This document shows, piece by piece, positions 7,919 through 41,957 of a DNA stretch of 41,957 nt. Under the pieces are notes generated by a model that was not told the DNA's origin, searched no databases, and was given only the letters and a program-made list of their open reading frames with translations. Each line of letters begins with the position of its first letter. The first letter of the stretch is position 1. The stretch is from an uncultured Eubacteriales bacterium. GTDB lineage: Bacteria > Bacteroidota > Bacteroidia > Bacteroidales > P3. Where the stretch lies: NCBI GenBank assembly GCA_963627985.1, contig CAVGDP010000017.1, positions 1 through 41,957 of the forward strand, given 5' to 3'. The translations under genes and the position numbers were made by a program.

Positions 7919-8032
7919 ATTCGAAGTTGGTTTTCTTAATTTTTGATAAGTATATTAAATTCTTAATATTTAGTATTTTATCTTTTTTGTGAATTGTTTT
8001 TACTTGTCCGAATTTTTTTTAATTCTATCAAA

Positions 8033-8095
8033 ATAATATTTGATTTTATTCTAATAACCTTTGATAATATTCTAATAAGTACGTTTATTATCAAA
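8033..8095 (-). repeat. short (3-unit) degenerate member of the 21-bp phased array family, upstream of tilS
   Basis: Plus-strand units are ATAATATTTGATTTTATTCTA / ATAACCTTTGATAATATTCTA / ATAAGTACGTTTATTATCAAA, each exactly 21 nt. Minus-strand reading includes TAGAATAAAATCAAATATTAT, matching units in the 36580 array. Confidence 0.55.
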
Positions 8096-12466: not shown

Positions 12467-12717
12467 GTGGAATTGTATTTATTTCGATTTGAAATAATAA
12501 AATAGACCTTTGTATAATAATGATTTTATGGTTATTATAGGGGTTATTGATTTAGCTTAAAGTCTATATTATATATTATTAAAAGGCAATTAAACAGAAT
12601 TAATTGTTTATTGTTTTTAGATTATTTTTCCTTCCGTGAACCATTGCTTAAATTTTTACGATAGGGGAAATAGAACATTTTAAAGAAATAGAAAATAGAA
12701 TAGTATCGCATTTTATC

Positions 12718-12801
12718 AAAATAAAATCAATAATCATTCGAATAAAATCAATAACTATTCAGATAAAGTCAATAATTATTTTGATGATTTTAGTATCTAT
12801 T
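12718..12801 (+). repeat. 21-bp phased tandem array (3 good units plus 1 degenerate)
   Basis: Units are AAAATAAAATCAATAATCATT / CGAATAAAATCAATAACTATT / CAGATAAAGTCAATAATTATT / TTGATGATTTTAGTATCTATT, preceded by TTTATC as in the 27625 and 36580 arrays. Confidence 0.75.
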
Positions 12802-12811
12802 TTAATTATTA

Positions 12812-12904
12812 TATAATCAAATCATTATAAAGACGAAAGAATTGTCCATTTTTGCTCAAAATATACCTCTCAAAAATACATTTATAGGAAAAATAGAATA
12901 TTTT
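12812..12904 (+). repeat. conserved 3' module of the array element (copy 1)
   Basis: TATAATCAAAT (12812), TCTCAAAAATACA (12868) and AAATAGAATATTTT (12891) lie at offsets 0/56/79. The copy at 27844 has the same offsets. Confidence 0.65.
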
Positions 12905-13212
12905 TGGGTATTAGGATAAAGTAGAATTTTTGGTGTATATCTTGGCGATTAATCCGCAACGGGCGATGGTGGAGATTTTATGATATTTCCCGCTTATAAG
13001 TAGAGAATATTTTTGTAGCAAAAATTAAACAAATGAAATAAATCTATTGTGGGTAAAGTTATATATTAGAGCAATAAATAAAAGGTCTTATTTGGTATAT
13101 TTTACAAACGATAATATGCGGTGAATTTTTATGTTATGCAAAAAATTATACCCTCGTAATACAATAAAAATAAATTTTTTGTGTTATATACGTAATATTA
13201 TTTTGTGTAGTT

Positions 13213-22595: not shown

Positions 22596-24899
22596 ATGAA
22601 AAAAATATTTTCCTTATTCATATTTGCTTTTGTTTCTTTCACTTTGTTTGCTCAAACAGGTACAATAAAAGGATTTGTATACAATATTATGGACGGAGAG
22701 CCAATAATGTTTGCTAATATTATTGTAGATAAAACTCAATTAGGTGCAAGTTCGGATATAAATGGTTTCTTTGTAATTAACAAAGTACCTGTTGGTAAGC
22801 AAAATATCAAAGTTCAAGTAATAGGTTATGCAGATACAATAATAAGTTTGGAAGTATCGCAAAACAAAGCCTTGAATATAAAAATAGAATTGACTCCTCA
22901 ATCACAAATACTTGAAACAATAGAAATTTCTGCTGCAAAAGAAATGGCTAAAACAGAATCGCGTGTGTCTGTAAAGAAAGTTACCGCTGTTGAAATTCAA
23001 AAAATGCCTTCTGTCGGAGGACAAGCCGATTTTGCACAGTATATACAAGTACTTCCTGGTGTTGTTTTCTCTGGCGACCAAGGTGGACAATTATATATTA
23101 GGGGAGGTTCTGCAATTCAAAACAAAGTTCTTTTGGATGGTATGACTATCTATAATCCTTTTCATTCTATTGGTTTATTCTCTGTTTTTGAGACAGATAT
23201 TATTCGTAACGCAGATGTTTATACGGGCGGATTCAATGCTCGTTATGGAGGACGATTATCCTCTATTATGGACATAACTACTCGCGATGGTAATAAGAAA
23301 AGAACAACAGGTAAAGTCTCTTTATCTACCTTTGGAGCGTCTGCCATTGTAGAAGGACCATTAATTGCCGATAAGGAAGATAGAGATTTCTCCGTTTCAT
23401 ATCTATTAACCGAAAAGAATTCGTATCTTTCGCAAACATCCAAATCAATTTATTCTTATACAAATACAGAATTGCCATACGACTTCTTAGATTTGTATGG
23501 TAAATTAACAATAGCATCCAGAACAGGTAGTAAGGCAAATATTTTTGGTTTTAATTTTACGGATAAAGTAAACGGATACAAGAGTATAGCAGATTTTAAT
23601 TGGAAAAATAGTGGAGCAGGTGCTAATTTTGTAATTGTTCCGCAAAATTCGTCCTCTATCGTTCAAGGTGTAGTCGCTTATTCTAATTATACAATGAATA
23701 TGAACGAGACGACTAATCAAAGTGAACAAAAAAGTAATATAAGTTCTTTCAATGGTAGTATTGATGTTACACAATTTTTCAACAAGAATCAATTGCGTTA
23801 TGGTGTTGATTTGATGTGGAATACTACCAAAACATTATTCGAAGGACAAGAGGAAGAACAAAAAGATTATTCCTCCGATTTGGGAGCCTATATGATATTC
23901 AAAGGTTTTGTTGGTAATCTACTCTATGAACCAAGTATTAGATTATCTTATTATGCCTCTTTGGCAGAAGCTGTTTTTGAGCCTCGTTTATCGTTGAAAT
24001 ATAATCTTACAGATAGATTTAGATTCAAAGCTGCATTAGGAAAATATTCTCAAACCTTTATTGATACTAAATCGGATAGAGATATAGTTAATTTATTTAC
24101 AGGTTATTTGACCACAAGCCCCGATCTTTTTGGTGGCGTTGTGAATACTTACAAAGGGGACGAAGTTACGCATTATATAGAAAAATCTAATCATTATATC
24201 TTCGGATTTGAATACGATATAATCAAACAACTAACCGCTAATATAGAAGGATACTACAAGACTATGACCAATCTTATTTCCGTTAATAGAGATAGAATTT
24301 ATGATAATGATAACGCTCATGCTTCATACCCAGATTATTTGAAAAAGAATTTTGCCGTAGAGGAAGGCAAAGCGTATGGTATGGATATGAGTTTGAAATA
24401 TGATAACGGTAGGTTATATGTTTGGGCGATATATTCATACGGTAAAGTAGAGAAAACAAGCGAGACACAGACCTATAATCCTCATTATGATAGAAGACAT
24501 AATGTTAATATTTTGGTTTCATATCAATTAGGAATGGAACGTTCGTGGGAGATTAGTGCTCGTTGGAATTACGGTTCAGGTTTTCCTTTTACTGCTACTG
24601 CAGGATTTGGGGAGATACTTTCTTTCTCTGGTGGAGTTAATAGCGATTATACTTCTCGCTCTGGTAGTTTAACTACAATGTATGGTAGTTTGAATGCAAA
24701 GCGATTACCATCTTATCATCGTTTGGATGTTTCTCTCAAGAAGCGTTTTACTCTTTTCCGCCATTCTATCTTGGAAGTAGAAGCAAGTGTTACCAATATT
24801 TATAATAGAAATAACATGTTCTATTACGATAGAATAACTTCCGAGCGGATAGACCAATTACCAATTATGCCGTCCTTAGGTATGACCTTACGGTTCTAA
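22596..24899 (+). CDS. TonB-dependent outer-membrane receptor with N-terminal carboxypeptidase-regulatory-like domain
   Basis: 767 aa with a signal peptide and a CarbopepD_reg-like start (GTIKGFVYNIMDGEPIMFANIIV). Plug-region motifs (LPGV, IRGG, DGMTIYNP) and a long beta-barrel ending ...LRF are present. Confidence 0.9.
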   Translation: MKKIFSLFIFAFVSFTLFAQTGTIKGFVYNIMDGEPIMFANIIVDKTQLGASSDINGFFVINKVPVGKQNIKVQVIGYADTIISLEVSQNKALNIKIELTPQSQILETIEISAAKEMAKTESRVSVKKVTAVEIQKMPSVGGQADFAQYIQVLPGVVFSGDQGGQLYIRGGSAIQNKVLLDGMTIYNPFHSIGLFSVFETDIIRNADVYTGGFNARYGGRLSSIMDITTRDGNKKRTTGKVSLSTFGASAIVEGPLIADKEDRDFSVSYLLTEKNSYLSQTSKSIYSYTNTELPYDFLDLYGKLTIASRTGSKANIFGFNFTDKVNGYKSIADFNWKNSGAGANFVIVPQNSSSIVQGVVAYSNYTMNMNETTNQSEQKSNISSFNGSIDVTQFFNKNQLRYGVDLMWNTTKTLFEGQEEEQKDYSSDLGAYMIFKGFVGNLLYEPSIRLSYYASLAEAVFEPRLSLKYNLTDRFRFKAALGKYSQTFIDTKSDRDIVNLFTGYLTTSPDLFGGVVNTYKGDEVTHYIEKSNHYIFGFEYDIIKQLTANIEGYYKTMTNLISVNRDRIYDNDNAHASYPDYLKKNFAVEEGKAYGMDMSLKYDNGRLYVWAIYSYGKVEKTSETQTYNPHYDRRHNVNILVSYQLGMERSWEISARWNYGSGFPFTATAGFGEILSFSGGVNSDYTSRSGSLTTMYGSLNAKRLPSYHRLDVSLKKRFTLFRHSILEVEASVTNIYNRNNMFYYDRITSERIDQLPIMPSLGMTLRF

Positions 24900-24981
24900 T
24901 ATTCTTCTCTTACTAATTAATATTTCTTCTTTTACTAATTAATATTATTCTCGTGCCGATTAATATTACTAACCGACTATT
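24897..24981 (+). repeat. four tandem 21-22-bp units each starting TAATATT
   Basis: Units are TAATATTCTTCTCTTACTAAT / TAATATTTCTTCTTTTACTAAT / TAATATTATTCTCGTGCCGAT / TAATATTACTAACCGACTATT. The first unit includes the receptor stop codon. Confidence 0.55.
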
Positions 24982-26831: not shown

Positions 26832-27323
26832 TTAGAATAAGGAGTTGTCATTAATATCTTGTATAACAGATTTCTTATATACAGCACCGTTAAGTATATC
26901 TACCAAAAAGAGATTAATCAATTCCTGCTCGTTTTTGATAGTTTCCTTGAAGGTAACATCTCTTTTCCAGGCGTTATAGACAACATTAAAATTCTTATCC
27001 GTTATATCTATTTTGGTATTCTTGCCATTTTTGAGGGCAGAATACATTTCCTTGATTTCATCGTTAATATATCTTGTAATTTTACCTTTGATTCTGTCGT
27101 TTATTCTATCTACTGCATCTTTGGTTGGGTTACTTGGTCGTTCTTTTTTCCAATTAATATCATTATTATACATAACCGAATCGGTAGAGCAATCGATTAG
27201 TTCCAAAATATCGTTATTCTCTTTGTCTTTGTATATTAAGGCTACTTCACTTAGGATATTGTTTTGTTTTTTTGTTAGTAAGAATAACTTGTGCGAGGGC
27301 TCTACGATGGTCGTTTTCGTCAT
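26832..27323 (-). CDS. 163-aa ORF, probable linker/helical segment of the disrupted RM fusion
   Basis: It overlaps the upstream 73-aa ORF by 77 nt in the +1 frame and ends at a TAA that is in frame with the methyltransferase ORF. Confidence 0.4.
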   Translation of the reverse strand: MTKTTIVEPSHKLFLLTKKQNNILSEVALIYKDKENNDILELIDCSTDSVMYNNDINWKKERPSNPTKDAVDRINDRIKGKITRYINDEIKEMYSALKNGKNTKIDITDKNFNVVYNAWKRDVTFKETIKNEQELINLFLVDILNGAVYKKSVIQDINDNSLF

Positions 27324-27468
27324 TTATAATATACTTACTTTCAATATAAAGCAACAAGTTACCACTTCTATCGGTTAGGATAACATCTACCATATTTATG
27401 TCCAACTTCCAAACACCGCTATCAAAATATTTTTCGCAGAAATCTTTCTTAAAATTTACCTCAGGCAT
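27247..27468 (-). CDS. 73-aa N-terminal fragment carrying a PD-(D/E)xK-like nuclease motif
   Basis: NMVDVILTDRSGNLLLYIESKYI contains D-x9-E-x-K, followed by RRALAQVI. The ATG start has a TATCTTTG promoter box 43 nt upstream. Confidence 0.45.
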   Translation of the reverse strand: MPEVNFKKDFCEKYFDSGVWKLDINMVDVILTDRSGNLLLYIESKYIINDENDHRRALAQVILTNKKTKQYPK

Positions 27469-27510
27469 ATATTACAAAATAATTATAATTGTTCTTTAAT
27501 AAATGAGTTG

Positions 27511-27518
27511 CAAAGATA
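27511..27518 (-). promoter_or_regulatory. TAnnTTTG -7 box for the RM remnant
   Basis: The minus strand reads TATCTTTG, followed by CA. Confidence 0.45.
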
Positions 27519-27624
27519 TGATATATTTTTAGAAAAAAGGGGATAAATCAACAAGTTTTTTAGAGAATAGATACAAATATTGTCTTTCGTGGTAAGATAT
27601 TTTCTCTATTATTACTCTTTATCA

Positions 27625-27813
27625 AAATAAAATCAATAACTATTTAAATAAAATCAATAACTATTTAAATAAAATCAATAACTATTTAAATAAAATCAAT
27701 AACTATTTAAATAAAATCAATAACTATTTAAATAAAATCAATAACTATTTAAATAAAATCAATAACTATTTGAATAAAATCAGATGTTATTTCAACGAAA
27801 TCAGATATTATTT
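27625..27813 (+). repeat. 21-bp phased tandem array, 9 units (7 identical)
   Basis: AAATAAAATCAATAACTATTT is repeated 7 times with no substitution (27625-27771), then GAATAAAATCAGATGTTATTT and CAACGAAATCAGATATTATTT follow. Confidence 0.92.
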
Positions 27814-27843
27814 TGCTGTTTGGGGTACTTAGTCTAAATATTG

Positions 27844-27936
27844 TATAATCAAATTATCACAGAGGTAGGAGTTTTTTCTATTTTTTGCTAAAAAACAATT
27901 CTCAAAAATACACATACAAGGAAAATAGAATATTTT
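27844..27936 (+). repeat. conserved 3' module of the array element (copy 2)
   Basis: TATAATCAAAT (27844), TCTCAAAAATACA (27900) and AAATAGAATATTTT (27923) lie at offsets 0/56/79, identical to copy 1. Confidence 0.65.
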
Positions 27937-28040
27937 GTGGCAATGAAATAATATAAGATTTGTGTGTTTGGACTAAATAAGTTTCTAAATGGAAGCAAAC
28001 AAGTCTATTCTTTACAGATAGAGTGTTATATTTGTGAGTA

Positions 28041-28104: not shown

Positions 28105-29898
28105 TTAGTTTTCTTTCTTTTCCATCTCTTCTTTTAATGAAGCCAAAACGTCCAAATCACCGAGAGTAGTTTTCTCTAAGTTTTGATTGATTTGTTTCAT
28201 AACGTTACCTTCTTTTCTTGGTTTGTTTTCGTCTTCTTGTTTCCAAGTTTTAGTGTGAGAAAGAACGATACGTTTTGCTTCTTTTTGGAATTCTATTACC
28301 TTAAATGAAAGTTTTTCATCTACTTTTGGCATAGTCTTGTCCTCTTTTTGCATTTGACCTTTTGGACAGAAACCTTCTATTCCGTATGGTAAATTAACAA
28401 CTGCACCACTCTTTTCATTAACACTTGTTATAGTGCCTTCGTGAACAGAACCAACGGTAAAGATGGTCTCGAAGACGTCCCAAGGATTTTCTTCTAATTG
28501 TTTGTGTCCCAAAGATAATCTTCTGTTTTCAGGATCTATGCTAAGAACAACAACATCTAACTTCTCGCCAATTTTTGTAAATTCAGCAGGGTGTTTAATT
28601 TTCTTATTCCAAGACAAATCAGAGATATGAATCAAACCATCTACGCCTTCTTCTAATTCTACAAAGATACCGAAATTAGTAAAGTTGCGAACAGTTGCAG
28701 TGTGTTTGCTTTCAACAGGATATTTCTTATCAATATCTATCCAAGGATCAGGCATTAGCTGTTTCATTCCTAAAGACATCTTTCTCTCTTCTCTATCCAA
28801 GGTCAAGATTATTGCCTCTACTTCATCACCTACTTTCAAGAAATCTTGGGCAGTACGTAAGTGTTGGCTCCAACTCATTTCTGTTACGTGAATTAGACCT
28901 TCTACGCCAGGGATTATTTCTACGAATGCACCGTAATCTGCTATCACAACAACTTTACCTTTAACCTTATCACCAACTTTTAAGTTTGGATCTAATTGAT
29001 CCCAAGGGTGAGCGGTAAGTTGTTTCAAACCAAGAGCGATTCTTTTCTTTGTCTCGTCAAAGTCTAAAATTACGACTTTTAGTTTTTGATCCAAATGAAC
29101 AATTTCTTCTGGTGAATTAATTCTACCCCAAGACAAATCCGTAATATGAATAAGTCCATCAACGCCACCTAAATCGATAAATACACCGTATGAAGTTATA
29201 TTCTTAACTATACCTTCTAATACTTGACCTTTTTCTAAATGAGACATAATCTCTATCTTTTGAGCCTCTATCTCATCTTCTATCAAAGCCTTATGAGATA
29301 CTACGATATTCTTGTATTCATTGTTGATTTTGATAATCTTAAATTCCATCGTCTTATCAACAAATACGTCGTAATCTCTTATAGGTTTTACGTCTATTTG
29401 CGAACCTGGTAAAAATGCTTCTATTCCAAAAACGTCTACAATTAGACCTCCTTTGGTTCTTGACTTAACGTAGCCTTTTATTATCTCTCCACTTTGGAAT
29501 GCTTCATTAACTCTACCCCAAGATTTTAGAATTCTTGCTTTCTTGTGGCTCAAAACCAATTGACCATTAGAATCTTCTTGATTCTCGATAAATACTTCAA
29601 CTTTGTCACCTATCTTCAAATCTGGGTTATAGCGAAATTCTGAAGCAGGTATAACGCCATCGGATTTGAAATCAATATTTACAACAACTTCTCTGTCGTT
29701 AATAGATACAACAGTGCCGTCTGCTAATTGATCATCTCCTATGCTACCGAATGTTTTGTCGTAAGCAGCTTGAAGTTTTTCCCTGTCTTCTTTGCTGTAA
29801 GTTTGTTTGGAATCAACCGAAGCCCAATCAAAATCTTGTAAAGGCTGAACGTCTTTTAAATCTCTCATATTGAGAATAAATTTGTTTGTTTTGTACAA
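28105..29898 (-). CDS. rpsA: 30S ribosomal protein S1
   Basis: Six S1/OB repeats are visible (for example GIVKNITSYGVFIDLGG, GKVVVIADYGAFVEI, ATVRNFTNFGIFVEL). The more likely start may be the internal ATG at 29868 (MRDLKDVQPLQDFDW). Confidence 0.96.
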   Translation of the reverse strand: MYKTNKFILNMRDLKDVQPLQDFDWASVDSKQTYSKEDREKLQAAYDKTFGSIGDDQLADGTVVSINDREVVVNIDFKSDGVIPASEFRYNPDLKIGDKVEVFIENQEDSNGQLVLSHKKARILKSWGRVNEAFQSGEIIKGYVKSRTKGGLIVDVFGIEAFLPGSQIDVKPIRDYDVFVDKTMEFKIIKINNEYKNIVVSHKALIEDEIEAQKIEIMSHLEKGQVLEGIVKNITSYGVFIDLGGVDGLIHITDLSWGRINSPEEIVHLDQKLKVVILDFDETKKRIALGLKQLTAHPWDQLDPNLKVGDKVKGKVVVIADYGAFVEIIPGVEGLIHVTEMSWSQHLRTAQDFLKVGDEVEAIILTLDREERKMSLGMKQLMPDPWIDIDKKYPVESKHTATVRNFTNFGIFVELEEGVDGLIHISDLSWNKKIKHPAEFTKIGEKLDVVVLSIDPENRRLSLGHKQLEENPWDVFETIFTVGSVHEGTITSVNEKSGAVVNLPYGIEGFCPKGQMQKEDKTMPKVDEKLSFKVIEFQKEAKRIVLSHTKTWKQEDENKPRKEGNVMKQINQNLEKTTLGDLDVLASLKEEMEKKEN

Positions 29899-29983
29899 TT
29901 CCCTGTTGAATTGAAAGATTAAACACTAAATTTTATTTATTCGCTTAATGATAACAGGCTCATTACTTGCGAATATCAGGGTG

Positions 29984-29991
29984 CAAAGATA
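29984..29991 (-). promoter_or_regulatory. TAnnTTTG -7 box for rpsA
   Basis: The minus strand reads TATCTTTG followed by CA, about 85-115 nt upstream of the candidate starts. Confidence 0.5.
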
Positions 29992-30129
29992 CAAAAATTT
30001 TCTATTCTACCAATATTTTTGCAGTTTTTTACTATTTTTAAGGTCATTTTTTGTTATTTCCTATTTAGTTTTCTTTCAACAAAAACTTTTTTAATACTAC
30101 CTCTTAAAACAATATCAGTATCCTTCGAA

Positions 30130-30276
30130 ATAAGTATTGATTTTATTTTAATAAGTATTGAAGTTATTTTGATAAGTACTTTATTTATTTTGATAAGTAC
30201 TTTATTTATTTTGATAAGTATTGAAGTTATTTTGATAAGTACTTTATTTATTTTGATAAGTATTGAAGTTATTTTG
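30130..30276 (-). repeat. 21-bp phased tandem array, 7 units of two interleaved subtypes, upstream of the rpsA promoter
   Basis: Plus-strand units are ATAAGTATTGATTTTATTTTA, then ATAAGTATTGAAGTTATTTTG (A) and ATAAGTACTTTATTTATTTTG (B) in the order A,B,B,A,B,A. The minus-strand reading of the first unit is TAAAATAAAATCAATACTTAT. Confidence 0.88.
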
Positions 30277-36579: not shown

Positions 36580-36789
36580 AAAATAAAATCACGAATCATT
36601 TGAATAGAATCAGATTTCATGAAAATAGAATCACATTTCATGAAAATAATATCAGTACTTATTAAAATAACTACGCTACTTATTAAAATAACTACGCTAC
36701 TTATCGAAATATCTTTTGAAGTTATTAGAATAAAATCAAAGATTATTAGGATGAAATCACATTTTATGAGAATAAAACGACATTTTGTT
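36580..36789 (+). repeat. 21-bp phased tandem array, 10 units with a conserved 5' half and variable core
   Basis: Ten consecutive 21-nt units run with no indel, and only one adjacent pair is near-identical (AAAATAACTACGCTACTTATT/C). The array is preceded by TTTATC. Confidence 0.85.
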
Positions 36790-36958
36790 TTGATAGAAGC
36801 GATTTTTCTTCTAAAATCTCTATAATTACTGTCCAGGAAATAGATTTCTGTGTTTTTGAGTAATATATTTAGTAATTGATATGCAGTTTTTTATACGCAA
36901 AAATAAGATTTGAGTAAAATAAATTGTCTAAAAATTTGTATAGTAACAAAAATGAATA

Positions 36959-36966
36959 TAATTTTG
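36959..36966 (+). promoter_or_regulatory. TAnnTTTG -7 box for the arginine decarboxylase-like gene
   Basis: TAATTTTG followed by CA lies 75 nt upstream of the ATG at 37041. Confidence 0.4.
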
Positions 36967-41902: not shown

Positions 41903-41957
41903 AAATAAAATCAATAACTATTCAAATAACTTCAATAACTATTCAAATAACTTCAAT
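41903..41957 (+). repeat. 21-bp phased tandem array, truncated by the window end
   Basis: AAATAAAATCAATAACTATTC / AAATAACTTCAATAACTATTC / AAATAACTTCAAT... The AACTTCAATA subtype also occurs in the 30130 array. Confidence 0.8.

Follow-up and report, generated by a model that had tools for sequence, protein, structure and literature searches.

Several families of short repeats in bacterial genomes share features with the arrays reported here. MIRU elements are 40-100 bp long and GC-rich, and many of them contain small ORFs that overlap the stop and start codons of neighbouring genes, and the STRR units of heterocystous cyanobacteria are 7 bp long. REPs, which are associated with RAYT transposases, are imperfect palindromes of 20-40 bp, rich in GC and with a GTAG/CGTC head; linkers separate them, and they do not follow one another head-to-tail at a strictly fixed period. 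Plasmid iterons and centromere repeats, such as R6K gamma, sopC and parC, have the architecture of a cooperative protein-binding array. A close analogue by description is BrickBuilt (also MITEPgRS/MITE464) of Porphyromonas gingivalis, a minisatellite/MITE (Klein et al., Mob DNA 2015, PMC4596501). It is present in 19 intergenic copies in 2.35 Mb, and its bricks expand and contract between strains (PMC4596501). The element has 23-nt bricks, a leader and tail, and the TIR GAGACCTTTGCA, although only 4 of the 19 copies have both TIRs and three are bricks only; BrickBuilt regions also yield transcripts (PMC4596501).

Here we describe six arrays of 21-bp tandem units from an uncultured gut Bacteroidales bacterium (~32% GC, with a T9SS), all within one window, by which we mean the whole stretch of DNA that was analysed (41,957 bp). 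We call the units bricks, by analogy with BrickBuilt. We favour, with a probability of roughly 0.6, the reading that each array represents one copy of an interspersed minisatellite, non-coding and lineage-specific, that belongs to this uncultured genus. By analogy, the family would be a bacterial minisatellite akin to those known in Porphyromonas and mycobacteria, with no sign that it serves as a special regulatory device. The initial annotation had recognised no named Bacteroidota repeat in the arrays; BrickBuilt (and MITEPgRS) is a named repeat that resembles them in description, and our literature searches for the brick 11-mer and for 21-bp repeats in Bacteroidetes found no prior description.

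The arrays and their bricks

A PWM scan of the window detected arrays only at the six loci listed below. These are, within a few bases, the loci of the dispersed, phase-locked 21-bp family that had been proposed from the sequence.

8031-8093, minus strand: short array of two to three bricks, in the 293-bp spacer between tilS and an S9 peptidase gene, identical in three strains
12698-12802, plus strand: efp-porU array, with three good bricks at 12719-12781 and one decayed brick on each side
27625-27771, plus strand: seven perfect 21-bp bricks, AAATAAAATCAATAACTATTT, that form the core of the focal array (sequence, TRF, 21-mer search and PWM scan)
27772-27792 and 27793-27813, plus strand: two in-phase variant bricks of the focal array, GAATAAAATCAGATGTTATTT and CAACGAAATCAGATATTATTT (sequence and PWM), the array terminating in ...TTATTTTG
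30128-30274, minus strand: seven-brick array with a 63-bp super-period (AAATAACTTCAATACTTATCA / AAATAAATAAAGTACTTATCA), inverted relative to array 27625
36581-36790, plus strand: ten heterogeneous bricks between a DUF4831 gene and a speA-like gene
41903-41957, plus strand: array of 2.6 bricks truncated at the window end, within which another assembly of this strain likewise terminates

Both TRF and the PWM scan gave a strict 21-bp period in every array. In the focal array, the sequence and TRF (27625-27782, period 21, 7.5 copies, 99% matches, score 309) agree with the original description of seven identical units at 27625-27771 followed by two in-phase variants. The AAATAAAATCAATAACTATTT 21-mer, with up to three mismatches allowed, has 13 matches in the window, compared with 0.05 expected from shuffles. 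Independent short-read assemblies of this strain break off precisely at arrays, so the copy number of seven may be assembly-dependent. Outside the arrays, the PWM scan of the window found almost no solitary bricks. The arrays account for 1.8% of the window and 13.6% of its intergenic DNA.

The bricks are ~86% A+T and have a conserved 21-bp frame, (A/G)AATAA-aaTCA-nnnnn-TTATY. The two ends of this frame are mutually complementary, and thus palindromes (TTATTT/AAATAA) arise at the brick junctions. Across ~25 array blocks from two species, positions 2-6, 9-11 and 17-19 are near-invariant, and positions 12-16 and 21 are variable. Pure neutral drift would erode such position-specific conservation, which therefore counts against the minisatellite reading and implies that the bricks are constrained, by a protein that binds them or by a copying mechanism. 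Bricks are more similar within an array than between arrays, and the array flanks are enriched in decayed in-phase bricks (of the 21 phases, phase 0 scored best in 6 of 10 flanks). Bricks of a similar kind are present in other, more GC-rich Bacteroidales bins (L020 and L005), which likewise counts against that reading, and in other lineages the 21-bp bricks are perfect palindromes. In L020, L001 and a second brick subfamily of a sister species (see below), the inner arms of the palindromic bricks differ yet remain complementary.

Three resemblances were considered and rejected. Apparent terminal inverted repeats at the ends of the window arrays, TATCAAAATAA...TTATTTTGATA, are unconserved in the sister species and are simply the brick frame. 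The ARG-box (ArgR, 18+3 = 21 bp) was compared by eye, and its half-sites would sit 2 bp too close. A DnaA-box, also compared by eye, has at least two mismatches and is absent from the perfect array.

Reading the unit by eye, we likewise find stops in five of the six frames, with only AAT AAA ATC AAT AAC TAT TTA open; the open frame of array 30128 is in a different register, and the assessment that the arrays are non-coding stands. So does their exclusion from CRISPR, as the units are head-to-tail, identical and spacerless and the window has no cas genes. The gene tables list no transposase or integrase in the window, consistent with the earlier remark that no transposase is nearby, and no tRNA or tmRNA genes were found in the window.

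Genomic placement and variation

All six window arrays are intergenic, as first described. Given 11.8% intergenic DNA (arrays set aside), this placement has P = 2.7e-6, and each of the four longest spacers in the window holds an array. For comparison we used a sister species (GCA_963588535.1; 95% amino acid identity in RpsA, 79-85% nucleotide identity), where 13 of 13 arrays in the loci examined are intergenic. Eight of these 13 are located 10-120 bp after stop codons, often directly past terminator hairpins, one lies between convergent genes, and single arrays mix forward and reverse blocks. In the window, four or five of the six arrays are 100-170 bp upstream of a canonical Bacteroidetes -7 box. 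In detail, array 30128 lies upstream of the rpsA promoter at 137 bp from its -7 box (29991), array 36581 is ~169 bp upstream of the -7 box of speA (36959), and array 27625 is ~107 bp upstream of that of the divergent ORF 26832-27323. The proposal that arrays point toward the start of the next gene did not emerge as a general rule, however, as the sister-species arrays are bidirectional and mostly follow stop codons.

The efp-porU array has three bricks in the window versus four in a 98.4%-identical strain, with the units homogenised. Contigs of independent assemblies end at 12683, 12728 and 41931, and also at the two positions 27773 and 30164. At least 14 contigs of the sister species carry the brick core, in blocks of both orientations, yet its rpsA locus and the site after DUF4831 have no array. 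The tilS-S9 spacer, which is 293 bp with its array, is 3 bp and 67 bp in two relatives that are too diverged for the ends to be aligned. All three orthologous sites compared in relatives were without an array.

In total, ~140 kb of the host genus was examined. A loose three-unit frame pattern matched at least 28 loci across genome contigs, including the sister species and unrelated 21-bp repeats in archaea and Firmicutes. We detected no arrays in ~1 Mb of other Bacteroidota loci, and metagenome relatives found via EF-P (≤70% identity) provided ~0.8 Mb of negative background. BLAST against plasmids and phage returned no match. Among viral contigs, searches with a two-unit pattern and with an exact 19-mer and 25-mer gave only single, non-tandem, coding-like chance matches.

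One pair of arrays, 12719 and 27625, was copied along with ~100-125 bp of flank. The arrays also appear to act as rearrangement substrates, as illustrated by an inversion at rpsA.

28105-29999, minus strand: rpsA and its promoter; the segment has the opposite orientation in the sister species and lies between the inverted arrays 27625 (plus) and 30128 (minus)

We also considered whether 771-aa "RpsA" proteins (P0009-P0012) are products of read-through into an array; they are instead internal duplications in other species.

If the arrays are an interspersed minisatellite, slippage at replication together with unequal recombination would make them grow and shrink. New loci could be seeded by ectopic recombination, by segmental copying or by trans-acting mobilisation; neither TIRs nor target-site duplications were found at the arrays that would indicate a dispersal mechanism, nor were there filled and empty sites of sufficiently low divergence to compare. 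The persistence of the arrays may reflect tolerance of insertions in the DNA that separates a terminator from the promoter that follows it. Effects on neighbouring genes, through promoter spacing, readthrough RNA or the provision of a recombination substrate, would then be a by-product rather than designed regulation. In practical terms, the arrays break up the short-read assemblies of what is a common, uncultured lineage of gut Bacteroidales, can mislead gene callers, and are usable as VNTR markers for strain tracking.

Alternative explanations

An alternative that we regard as rather unlikely is that the arrays form a phased protein lattice. The brick, or the junction TTATTT/AAATAA, would be the site of a dimeric or cooperative protein (HU/IHF-like or a regulator), with sites on one helix face, and the resulting filament would insulate, silence or organise transcription units. 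The strict 21-bp period of all arrays fits this proposal, as do the conserved and variable positions that are kept across arrays and two species, the related bricks in other Bacteroidales and the distances of window arrays to -7 boxes. The palindromic junctions also favour it, and in the predicted folds adjacent junctions pair. The AATCAA within the brick resembles the IHF core, WATCAA, which also speaks for the lattice, although the remainder of the IHF consensus is unmatched. However, arrays are not retained at orthologous promoters in the sister species, and they also occur between convergent genes and directly after stop codons. The near absence of solitary bricks outside arrays is unusual for regulator sites, and the units are homogenised within arrays in the manner of a satellite. 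The complementary but differing inner arms (L020, L001 and sister-species subfamily 2) fit a nucleic-acid structure or copying mechanism better than a fixed half-site, and no candidate protein was found. If a protein does read the 21-bp lattice, the arrays would be a candidate for a new nucleoid or insulator element.

A broader version, which we consider unlikely, combines the lattice with a second option. Here the bricks would be genus-wide, perhaps wider Bacteroidales, two-turn-phased sites that are either read by a conserved DNA-binding protein for insulating or organising transcription units, or copied via the AAATAA...TTATTT frame without TIRs or transposase ends. This suggestion derives from the conservation of positions across species at ~80% nucleotide identity and from the complementary inner arms seen elsewhere.

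It is more doubtful still that the arrays are a non-autonomous transposon (MITE) of the BrickBuilt type. Under this explanation an element with a leader, a tail and IS5-type TIRs would have the bricks as its internal minisatellite, a transposase encoded elsewhere in the genome would mobilise it in trans, and most of its copies would by now have eroded to bricks; the BrickBuilt copies that lack TIRs offer a precedent. The flanks relevant to this are the following.

12504-13088, strand not assigned: possible MITE-like boundaries, at the efp-porU array only, with AGACCTTT at 12504-12511 (plus) and its complement at 13081-13088; the core of the BrickBuilt IS5-type TIR
12803-12909, plus strand: tail of the efp-porU array, with -7-like boxes at 12878 (minus) and 12899 (plus)
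27814-27940, plus strand: tail of array 27625, which overlaps an A/T tract predicted to be curved (27866-27973) and has a minus-strand -7-like box, TATTTTTG, at 27910

The tails of arrays 12719 and 27625 are alike (27835-27936 versus 12803-12904, 75% over 103 bp), which fits a MITE. This shared tail is the sole flank homology between arrays in the window and the sister species. Moreover, array 12719 is located within AGACCTTT...AAAGGTCT, which are inverted, 577 bp apart, have 18-nt arms that are 78% complementary, and represent two of only four exact occurrences in the window. This pair is probably coincidental, as no other array has one: GACCTTT/AAAGGTC brackets none of the other window arrays and 0 of the 13 sister-species arrays examined. 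Matches to the IS5-type 12-bp TIR GAGACCTTTGCA, with up to two mismatches, were at chance level. Against the MITE there is also no conserved leader at the arrays and no further leader or tail homology in the window or the sister species. Many sister-species arrays are 10-90 bp from genes, and thus have no space for a leader and tail. No target-site duplication is evident at 12504/13088, and the window has no transposase.

The initial annotation suggested that the arrays are intrinsically curved, A-tract-phased DNA that acts as an upstream promoter element, which we now judge very improbable. The period does equal two helical turns, every brick has A-runs and several arrays are upstream of promoters. 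However, three dinucleotide wedge models (prediction only; De Santis and AA-wedge parameters included) have the seven-unit array straight, with end-to-end/contour ratios of 0.978-0.996, compared with 0.28-0.33 for a phased A-tract control. Its predicted straightness exceeds that of 80-99.7% of the 147-bp segments of the window and that of 96% of shuffled-unit arrays. One model ranks array 30128 among the 2% of 147-bp segments with most curvature, but this signal is gone in the other two, and the models predict no consistent curvature across arrays. The curved DNA that they do predict is just downstream of the arrays, not inside them.

Equally remote is the idea that the arrays encode a structured or processed non-coding RNA, such as an sRNA array or guide-like array. 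Compared with shuffles, plus-strand RNA from 27610-27830 has the better predicted fold (z = -5.9), and BrickBuilt, as described above, is transcribed. As some sister-species arrays are ~20-30 bp from a start codon or between co-directional genes, they have to be transcribed, by readthrough at the least. However, the fold consists of all-A:U pairing of adjacent palindromic junctions, which is automatic from the repeat, and the opposite strand (z = -2.1) and DNA (z = -1.9) score lower. The whole window has no Rfam match at the gathering threshold, the focal array has no TAnnTTTG box ahead of it on the same strand, the identical units within an array leave no spacer or guide diversity, and there are no associated protein genes.

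Comparison with known repeat systems

The bricks share with plasmid iterons and centromere repeats (e.g., the seven 22-bp repeats of R6K gamma) a head-to-tail arrangement of at least seven dyad repeats of ~21 bp, spaced at integral helical turns. Iterons and centromeres occur once per replicon, by rep or par, whereas here six arrays are distributed over 42 kb of ordinary chromosome with no rep or par gene. The arrays are amid housekeeping genes and none were found on plasmids, phage or viral contigs, in line with the first impression that they are not plasmid iterons.

Like the REP/BIME and REPIN sequences of proteobacteria, the bricks are high-copy and extragenic, are often just past stop codons, occur in both orientations in clusters, appear to serve as recombination substrates and cause trouble for assembly and annotation. 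In contrast to REPs, we saw no GTAG/CGTC heads, linkers or link to a RAYT in the bricks. We rejected a REP/BIME (REPIN) assignment, given the high A+T content of the bricks, an A:T frame of only 5-6 bp, and the absence of a Y1 transposase from the window.

The resemblance to MIRU, other interspersed VNTRs and STRR is in organisation: one tandem family at many intergenic loci, with a copy number that differs between strains, which is what we found for the bricks. As in these families, some copies are between co-directional genes of one transcription unit. The 21-bp palindromic frame separates the bricks from both MIRU and STRR.

BrickBuilt also has a Bacteroidales host and consists of spacerless tandem short repeats (23 nt in BrickBuilt, 21 nt here) in many copies that are always intergenic. 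In both families the bricks have conserved and variable positions, whole bricks are gained or lost between strains and some copies are bricks only. Both also have no Rfam match, have promoter-like elements in their flanks, and break or complicate assemblies. The likeness is one of description, and there are clear differences. The arrays reported here have no conserved leader and a tail in two copies only, IS5-type TIRs are absent but for the one doubtful pair at array 12719, and no target-site duplication was seen. The palindromic brick frame and the forward and reverse blocks within one sister-species array also set them apart, and they are packed far more densely in this region (6 arrays in 42 kb versus 19 in 2.35 Mb). 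The brick family sharpens the question of how tandem families without TIRs spread. With it, interspersed minisatellites of the BrickBuilt/MIRU type extend to a further lineage of Bacteroidales, where they are locally very dense and without recognisable transposon ends.

Arrays of a 21-bp brick in intergenic DNA

As described in the initial annotation, the focal array opens with seven perfect head-to-tail units of AAATAAAATCAATAACTATTT (27625-27771), directly followed by two variant units in the same phase (27772-27813), and TRF confirmed this structure (period 21, 7.5 copies, 99% matches, score 309). The 21-mer has 13 matches at ≤3 mismatches in the window, versus 0.05 expected. Scanning with a position weight matrix (PWM) derived from the array units recovered the same six dispersed arrays that had been picked out from the sequence, and almost no solitary bricks (single 21-bp units) outside them.

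Brick arrays detected by PWM in the window
8031-8093, minus strand: tilS array
12698-12802, plus strand: efp-porU array (core at 12719)
27625-27813, plus strand: focal array
30128-30274, minus strand: brick array
36581-36790, plus strand: brick array
41903-41957, plus strand: brick array cut by the window end

All six are intergenic (P = 2.7e-6). Array sequence takes up 13.6% of the intergenic DNA, or 1.8% of the whole window, and each of the four longest spacers holds one array. The perfect array is open in one frame (NKINNYL repeated) and array 30128 in another register; this difference makes coding not credible, in agreement with the initial annotation. A check of Rfam for an earlier description gave zero matches anywhere in the window, a tRNA search of it found none, and a gene survey detected no transposase or integrase genes there, as had been reported for transposases near the arrays.

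The brick consensus over 25 array blocks is AAATAAAATCAgaaaTTATTt. Positions 2-6, 9-11 and 17-19 are nearly invariant and positions 12-16 and 21 are free, a profile that is somewhat circular because the blocks were chosen by PWM. Brick ends are complementary (AAATAA...TTATTT), so every junction is a palindrome (TTATTT/AAATAA). Array edges consist of decayed bricks that are still in phase: phase 0 outranks the other 20 phases in 6 of 10 flanks. In the sister species (MAG GCA_963588535.1), a forward-brick block can adjoin a reverse-brick block inside one array, and a second subfamily, AAATAAAGTT-A-AACTTTATTT, is a near-perfect 21-bp palindrome. Perfect 10-1-10 palindromic 21-bp bricks occur in some lineages (AAATAATGTC-A-GACATTATTT, AAATAATCCT-T-AGGATTATT and AAATAAAGTT-A-AACTTTATTT). 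Their outer arms, which the search pattern imposed, are shared; their inner arms differ yet are mutually complementary, which the pattern did not impose.

Palindromic bricks at loci from other assemblies
L020, 5811-5873
L001, 6129-6176
L008, L009 and L013, arrays of the sister species

Two further features of the window were noted. At 24897-24967, 3.3 copies of another unit, TAATATTCTTCTCTTACTAAT, form a second tandem repeat of 21/22 bp. This repeat overlaps the stop codon of a TonB-receptor-like gene (22596-24899) and could be related to the brick, in reverse orientation and decayed. On the minus strand of 27324-27470, an ATG-initiated frame (MPEVNFKKDFCEKYFDSGVWKLD...), read by eye, starts near 27467, downstream of a -7 box at 27518. 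It is in frame with the ORF at 26832-27323, with a stop between, and could be a small ORF or that gene's 5′ end, frameshifted or interrupted.

Carriers, turnover and placement

Gene content (efp, porU/porV, rpsA and tilS) and the nearest homologues assign the window to an uncultured gut Bacteroidales of ~32% GC. The same species was found in JGI 3300001528 (98.4% identical across 20.5 kb) and in two Logan runs. Every short-read contig of this strain stops at an array (12683; 12728; 41931; 27773 and 30164), including a 2.4 kb contig bounded by 27773 and 30164 that carries rpsA only. Thus, the arrays are real repeats that break assemblies, and the figure of seven copies needs caution.

A loose frame pattern was scanned over one genome per species; at least 14 contigs of GCA_963588535.1 have the brick core AATAAAATCAGTAAT. 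The RpsA of this genome is 95% identical to that of the window, shared blocks have 79-85% nucleotide identity, and one protein end reads, in our own translation (locus L016), as a typical T9SS C-terminal sorting-domain end. Judged from these sequences, the genome (contigs CAVAII01...; loci L002, L008-L019, L025 and L032) is a Bacteroidales sister species, and its label Erysipelotrichaceae is wrong. The bin with locus L020, labelled “Clostridiaceae bacterium Marseille-Q4149,” encodes a 331-aa EF-Ts and a long RpsB and looks like Bacteroidales. The only carriers in a phased PWM scan were the window and its own species, GCA_963588535.1, L020 and L005 (labelled Bacteroidaceae); ~1 Mb of other Bacteroidota loci gave no array. 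No brick arrays were found in the viral contigs, phage records and plasmid records searched.

At efp-porU, the window has three bricks and the 98.4% strain has four, which are more homogeneous; three strains share an identical short tilS array. Similarity among bricks is greater within an array than across arrays, which points to concerted evolution. In the sister species, arrays are missing both upstream of rpsA and downstream of DUF4831, and the efp neighbourhood is rearranged. The tilS-S9 spacer measures 293 bp with its array in the window; in two other relatives its length is 3 bp and 67 bp. At the loci compared, array positions are not conserved between species.

For four or five arrays of the window, a TAnnTTTG -7 box follows 100-170 bp downstream. 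Of 13 sister-species arrays, 8 start 10-120 bp past a stop codon, often right behind a terminator hairpin; one is placed between two convergent genes, and some finish no more than ~20-30 bp from a start codon. In the window, 5/6 arrays show the proposed orientation towards the next gene; the rule does not extend to the sister species, where orientations are mixed.

The arrays at 12719 and 27625 share a downstream tail (12803-12909 and 27814-27940; 103-125 bp, 75% identity), the only inter-array homology outside the bricks, and we infer that an array was copied with flanking DNA at least once. The end first annotated for the focal feature (27942) approximates the end of this tail. In addition, rpsA and its promoter (28105-29999) are inverted relative to the sister species, in which rpsA leads straight to an EamA gene 82 bp downstream. 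The segment is flanked by the mutually inverted arrays 27625(+) and 30128(-), which suggests recombination between them; alternatively, the arrays may have been inserted after the inversion.

Other short repeats occur near rpsA. In another Bacteroidales (RpsA 89% identical), the DNA ~220-310 bp upstream of rpsA holds a 22-bp array of TTTTCAAAAAACATATGTATT unrelated to the bricks (L033/L034, 9689-9777), whose ~4 copies all contain the dyad ACATATGT, indicating that short tandem arrays arose upstream of this gene more than once. In the sister species, a restriction-modification island upstream of rpsA includes a DUF6371 gene (L032 5437-5637; also L141-L146) with 21-bp tandem repeats in its coding sequence, also unrelated to the bricks.

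Origin of the arrays

The arrays lie between genes, do not encode protein, vary in copy number, are homogenised and are unstable in position between species; they are associated with assembly breaks and one inversion, and one was copied with its flank. The likeliest mechanism, to which we assign a probability of roughly 0.6, combines slippage or unequal exchange, ectopic spread or mobilisation in trans, and survival where tolerated. Arrays would lengthen and shorten via slippage and unequal exchange, new loci would come from ectopic recombination, segmental copying or trans-acting mobilisation, and arrays would persist between a terminator and the next promoter, where insertions are tolerated.

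The main rival is a protein-binding lattice phased at two helical turns. It best accounts for the conservation of the same brick positions across species, but poorly for the missing positional conservation, for the small number of solitary sites and for the placement of arrays between convergent genes, and we regard it as unlikely. That either a lattice read by a protein or a copying mechanism of a new kind, recognising the palindromic frame, is involved seems quite unlikely.

Descent from an eroded MITE is improbable. Only array 12719 is flanked by AGACCTTT...AAAGGTCT, the AGACCTTT octamers (12504-12511 and 13081-13088) being in inverted orientation and two of only four exact copies in the window. 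The IS5-type TIR of ISPg1 and of BrickBuilt, a Porphyromonas gingivalis repeat (PMC4596501), has AGACCTTT at its core. The bracket is absent at all other arrays examined; it is intriguing but unsupported by them. Matches resembling the BrickBuilt TIR are at chance level.

Curved DNA, the mechanism first proposed, is very improbable. Helix-axis paths were computed under three wedge models for dinucleotide steps: Bolshoy-Trifonov, De Santis and AA-wedge, the latter two with hand-entered parameters. All predict a straight seven-brick array (end-to-end/contour 0.978-0.996, versus 0.28-0.33 for a phased A6 control), straighter than 80-99.7% of the window's 147-bp segments and than 96% of arrays of shuffled bricks. 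Array 30128 is curved under one of the three models only. Four of the strongly curved tracts predicted by Bolshoy-Trifonov in the window sit just downstream of arrays, between array and promoter (12838-12903, 27866-27973, 29984-30049 and 36806-36964); the arrays themselves are not curved.

An RNA product is hardly credible: RNA and DNA folds pair neighbouring junctions because these are palindromic, and the fold signal, of A:T or A:U pairs only, is an automatic outcome of the repeat.

Comparison with known repeats

REP/BIME, CRISPR, iterons and Rfam families each fail on defining features, in keeping with the initial annotation for REP/BIME, iterons and CRISPR. It had also recognised no named Bacteroidota repeat; BrickBuilt is alike in behaviour, but its transposon features are not matched here. 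BrickBuilt is a 23-nt spacerless tandem repeat in 19 copies, always intergenic, with conserved and variable brick positions, and its brick number grows and shrinks between strains (PMC4596501). Some copies consist of bricks only; the element has distinct leader and tail segments that end in IS5-type TIRs (GAGACCTTTGCA), and its flanks have promoter activity (PMC4596501). The 21-bp family behaves as BrickBuilt does, but the window arrays have no conserved leader, and no leader or tail homology was detected beyond the pair 12719/27625. On the minus strand, both tails of this pair have a -7-like box facing the array (12878 and 27910), a perfect TATTTTTG, and the efp-porU tail also has a plus-strand box at 12899, facing outward; these recall the bidirectional promoters reported for the BrickBuilt tail.

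We found no pointers to a new kind of system. The arrays are a real and striking local feature, belong to a known kind of bacterial repeat, and matter both for the assembly and typing of this gut Bacteroidales lineage and as a clean case of a tandem family that lacks terminal inverted repeats. Compared by described features, the family is not a member of BrickBuilt. Since it shares the behaviour of BrickBuilt but not its transposon features, it is placed in the broad class of interspersed intergenic minisatellites (BrickBuilt, MITEPgRS, MIRU, STRR).
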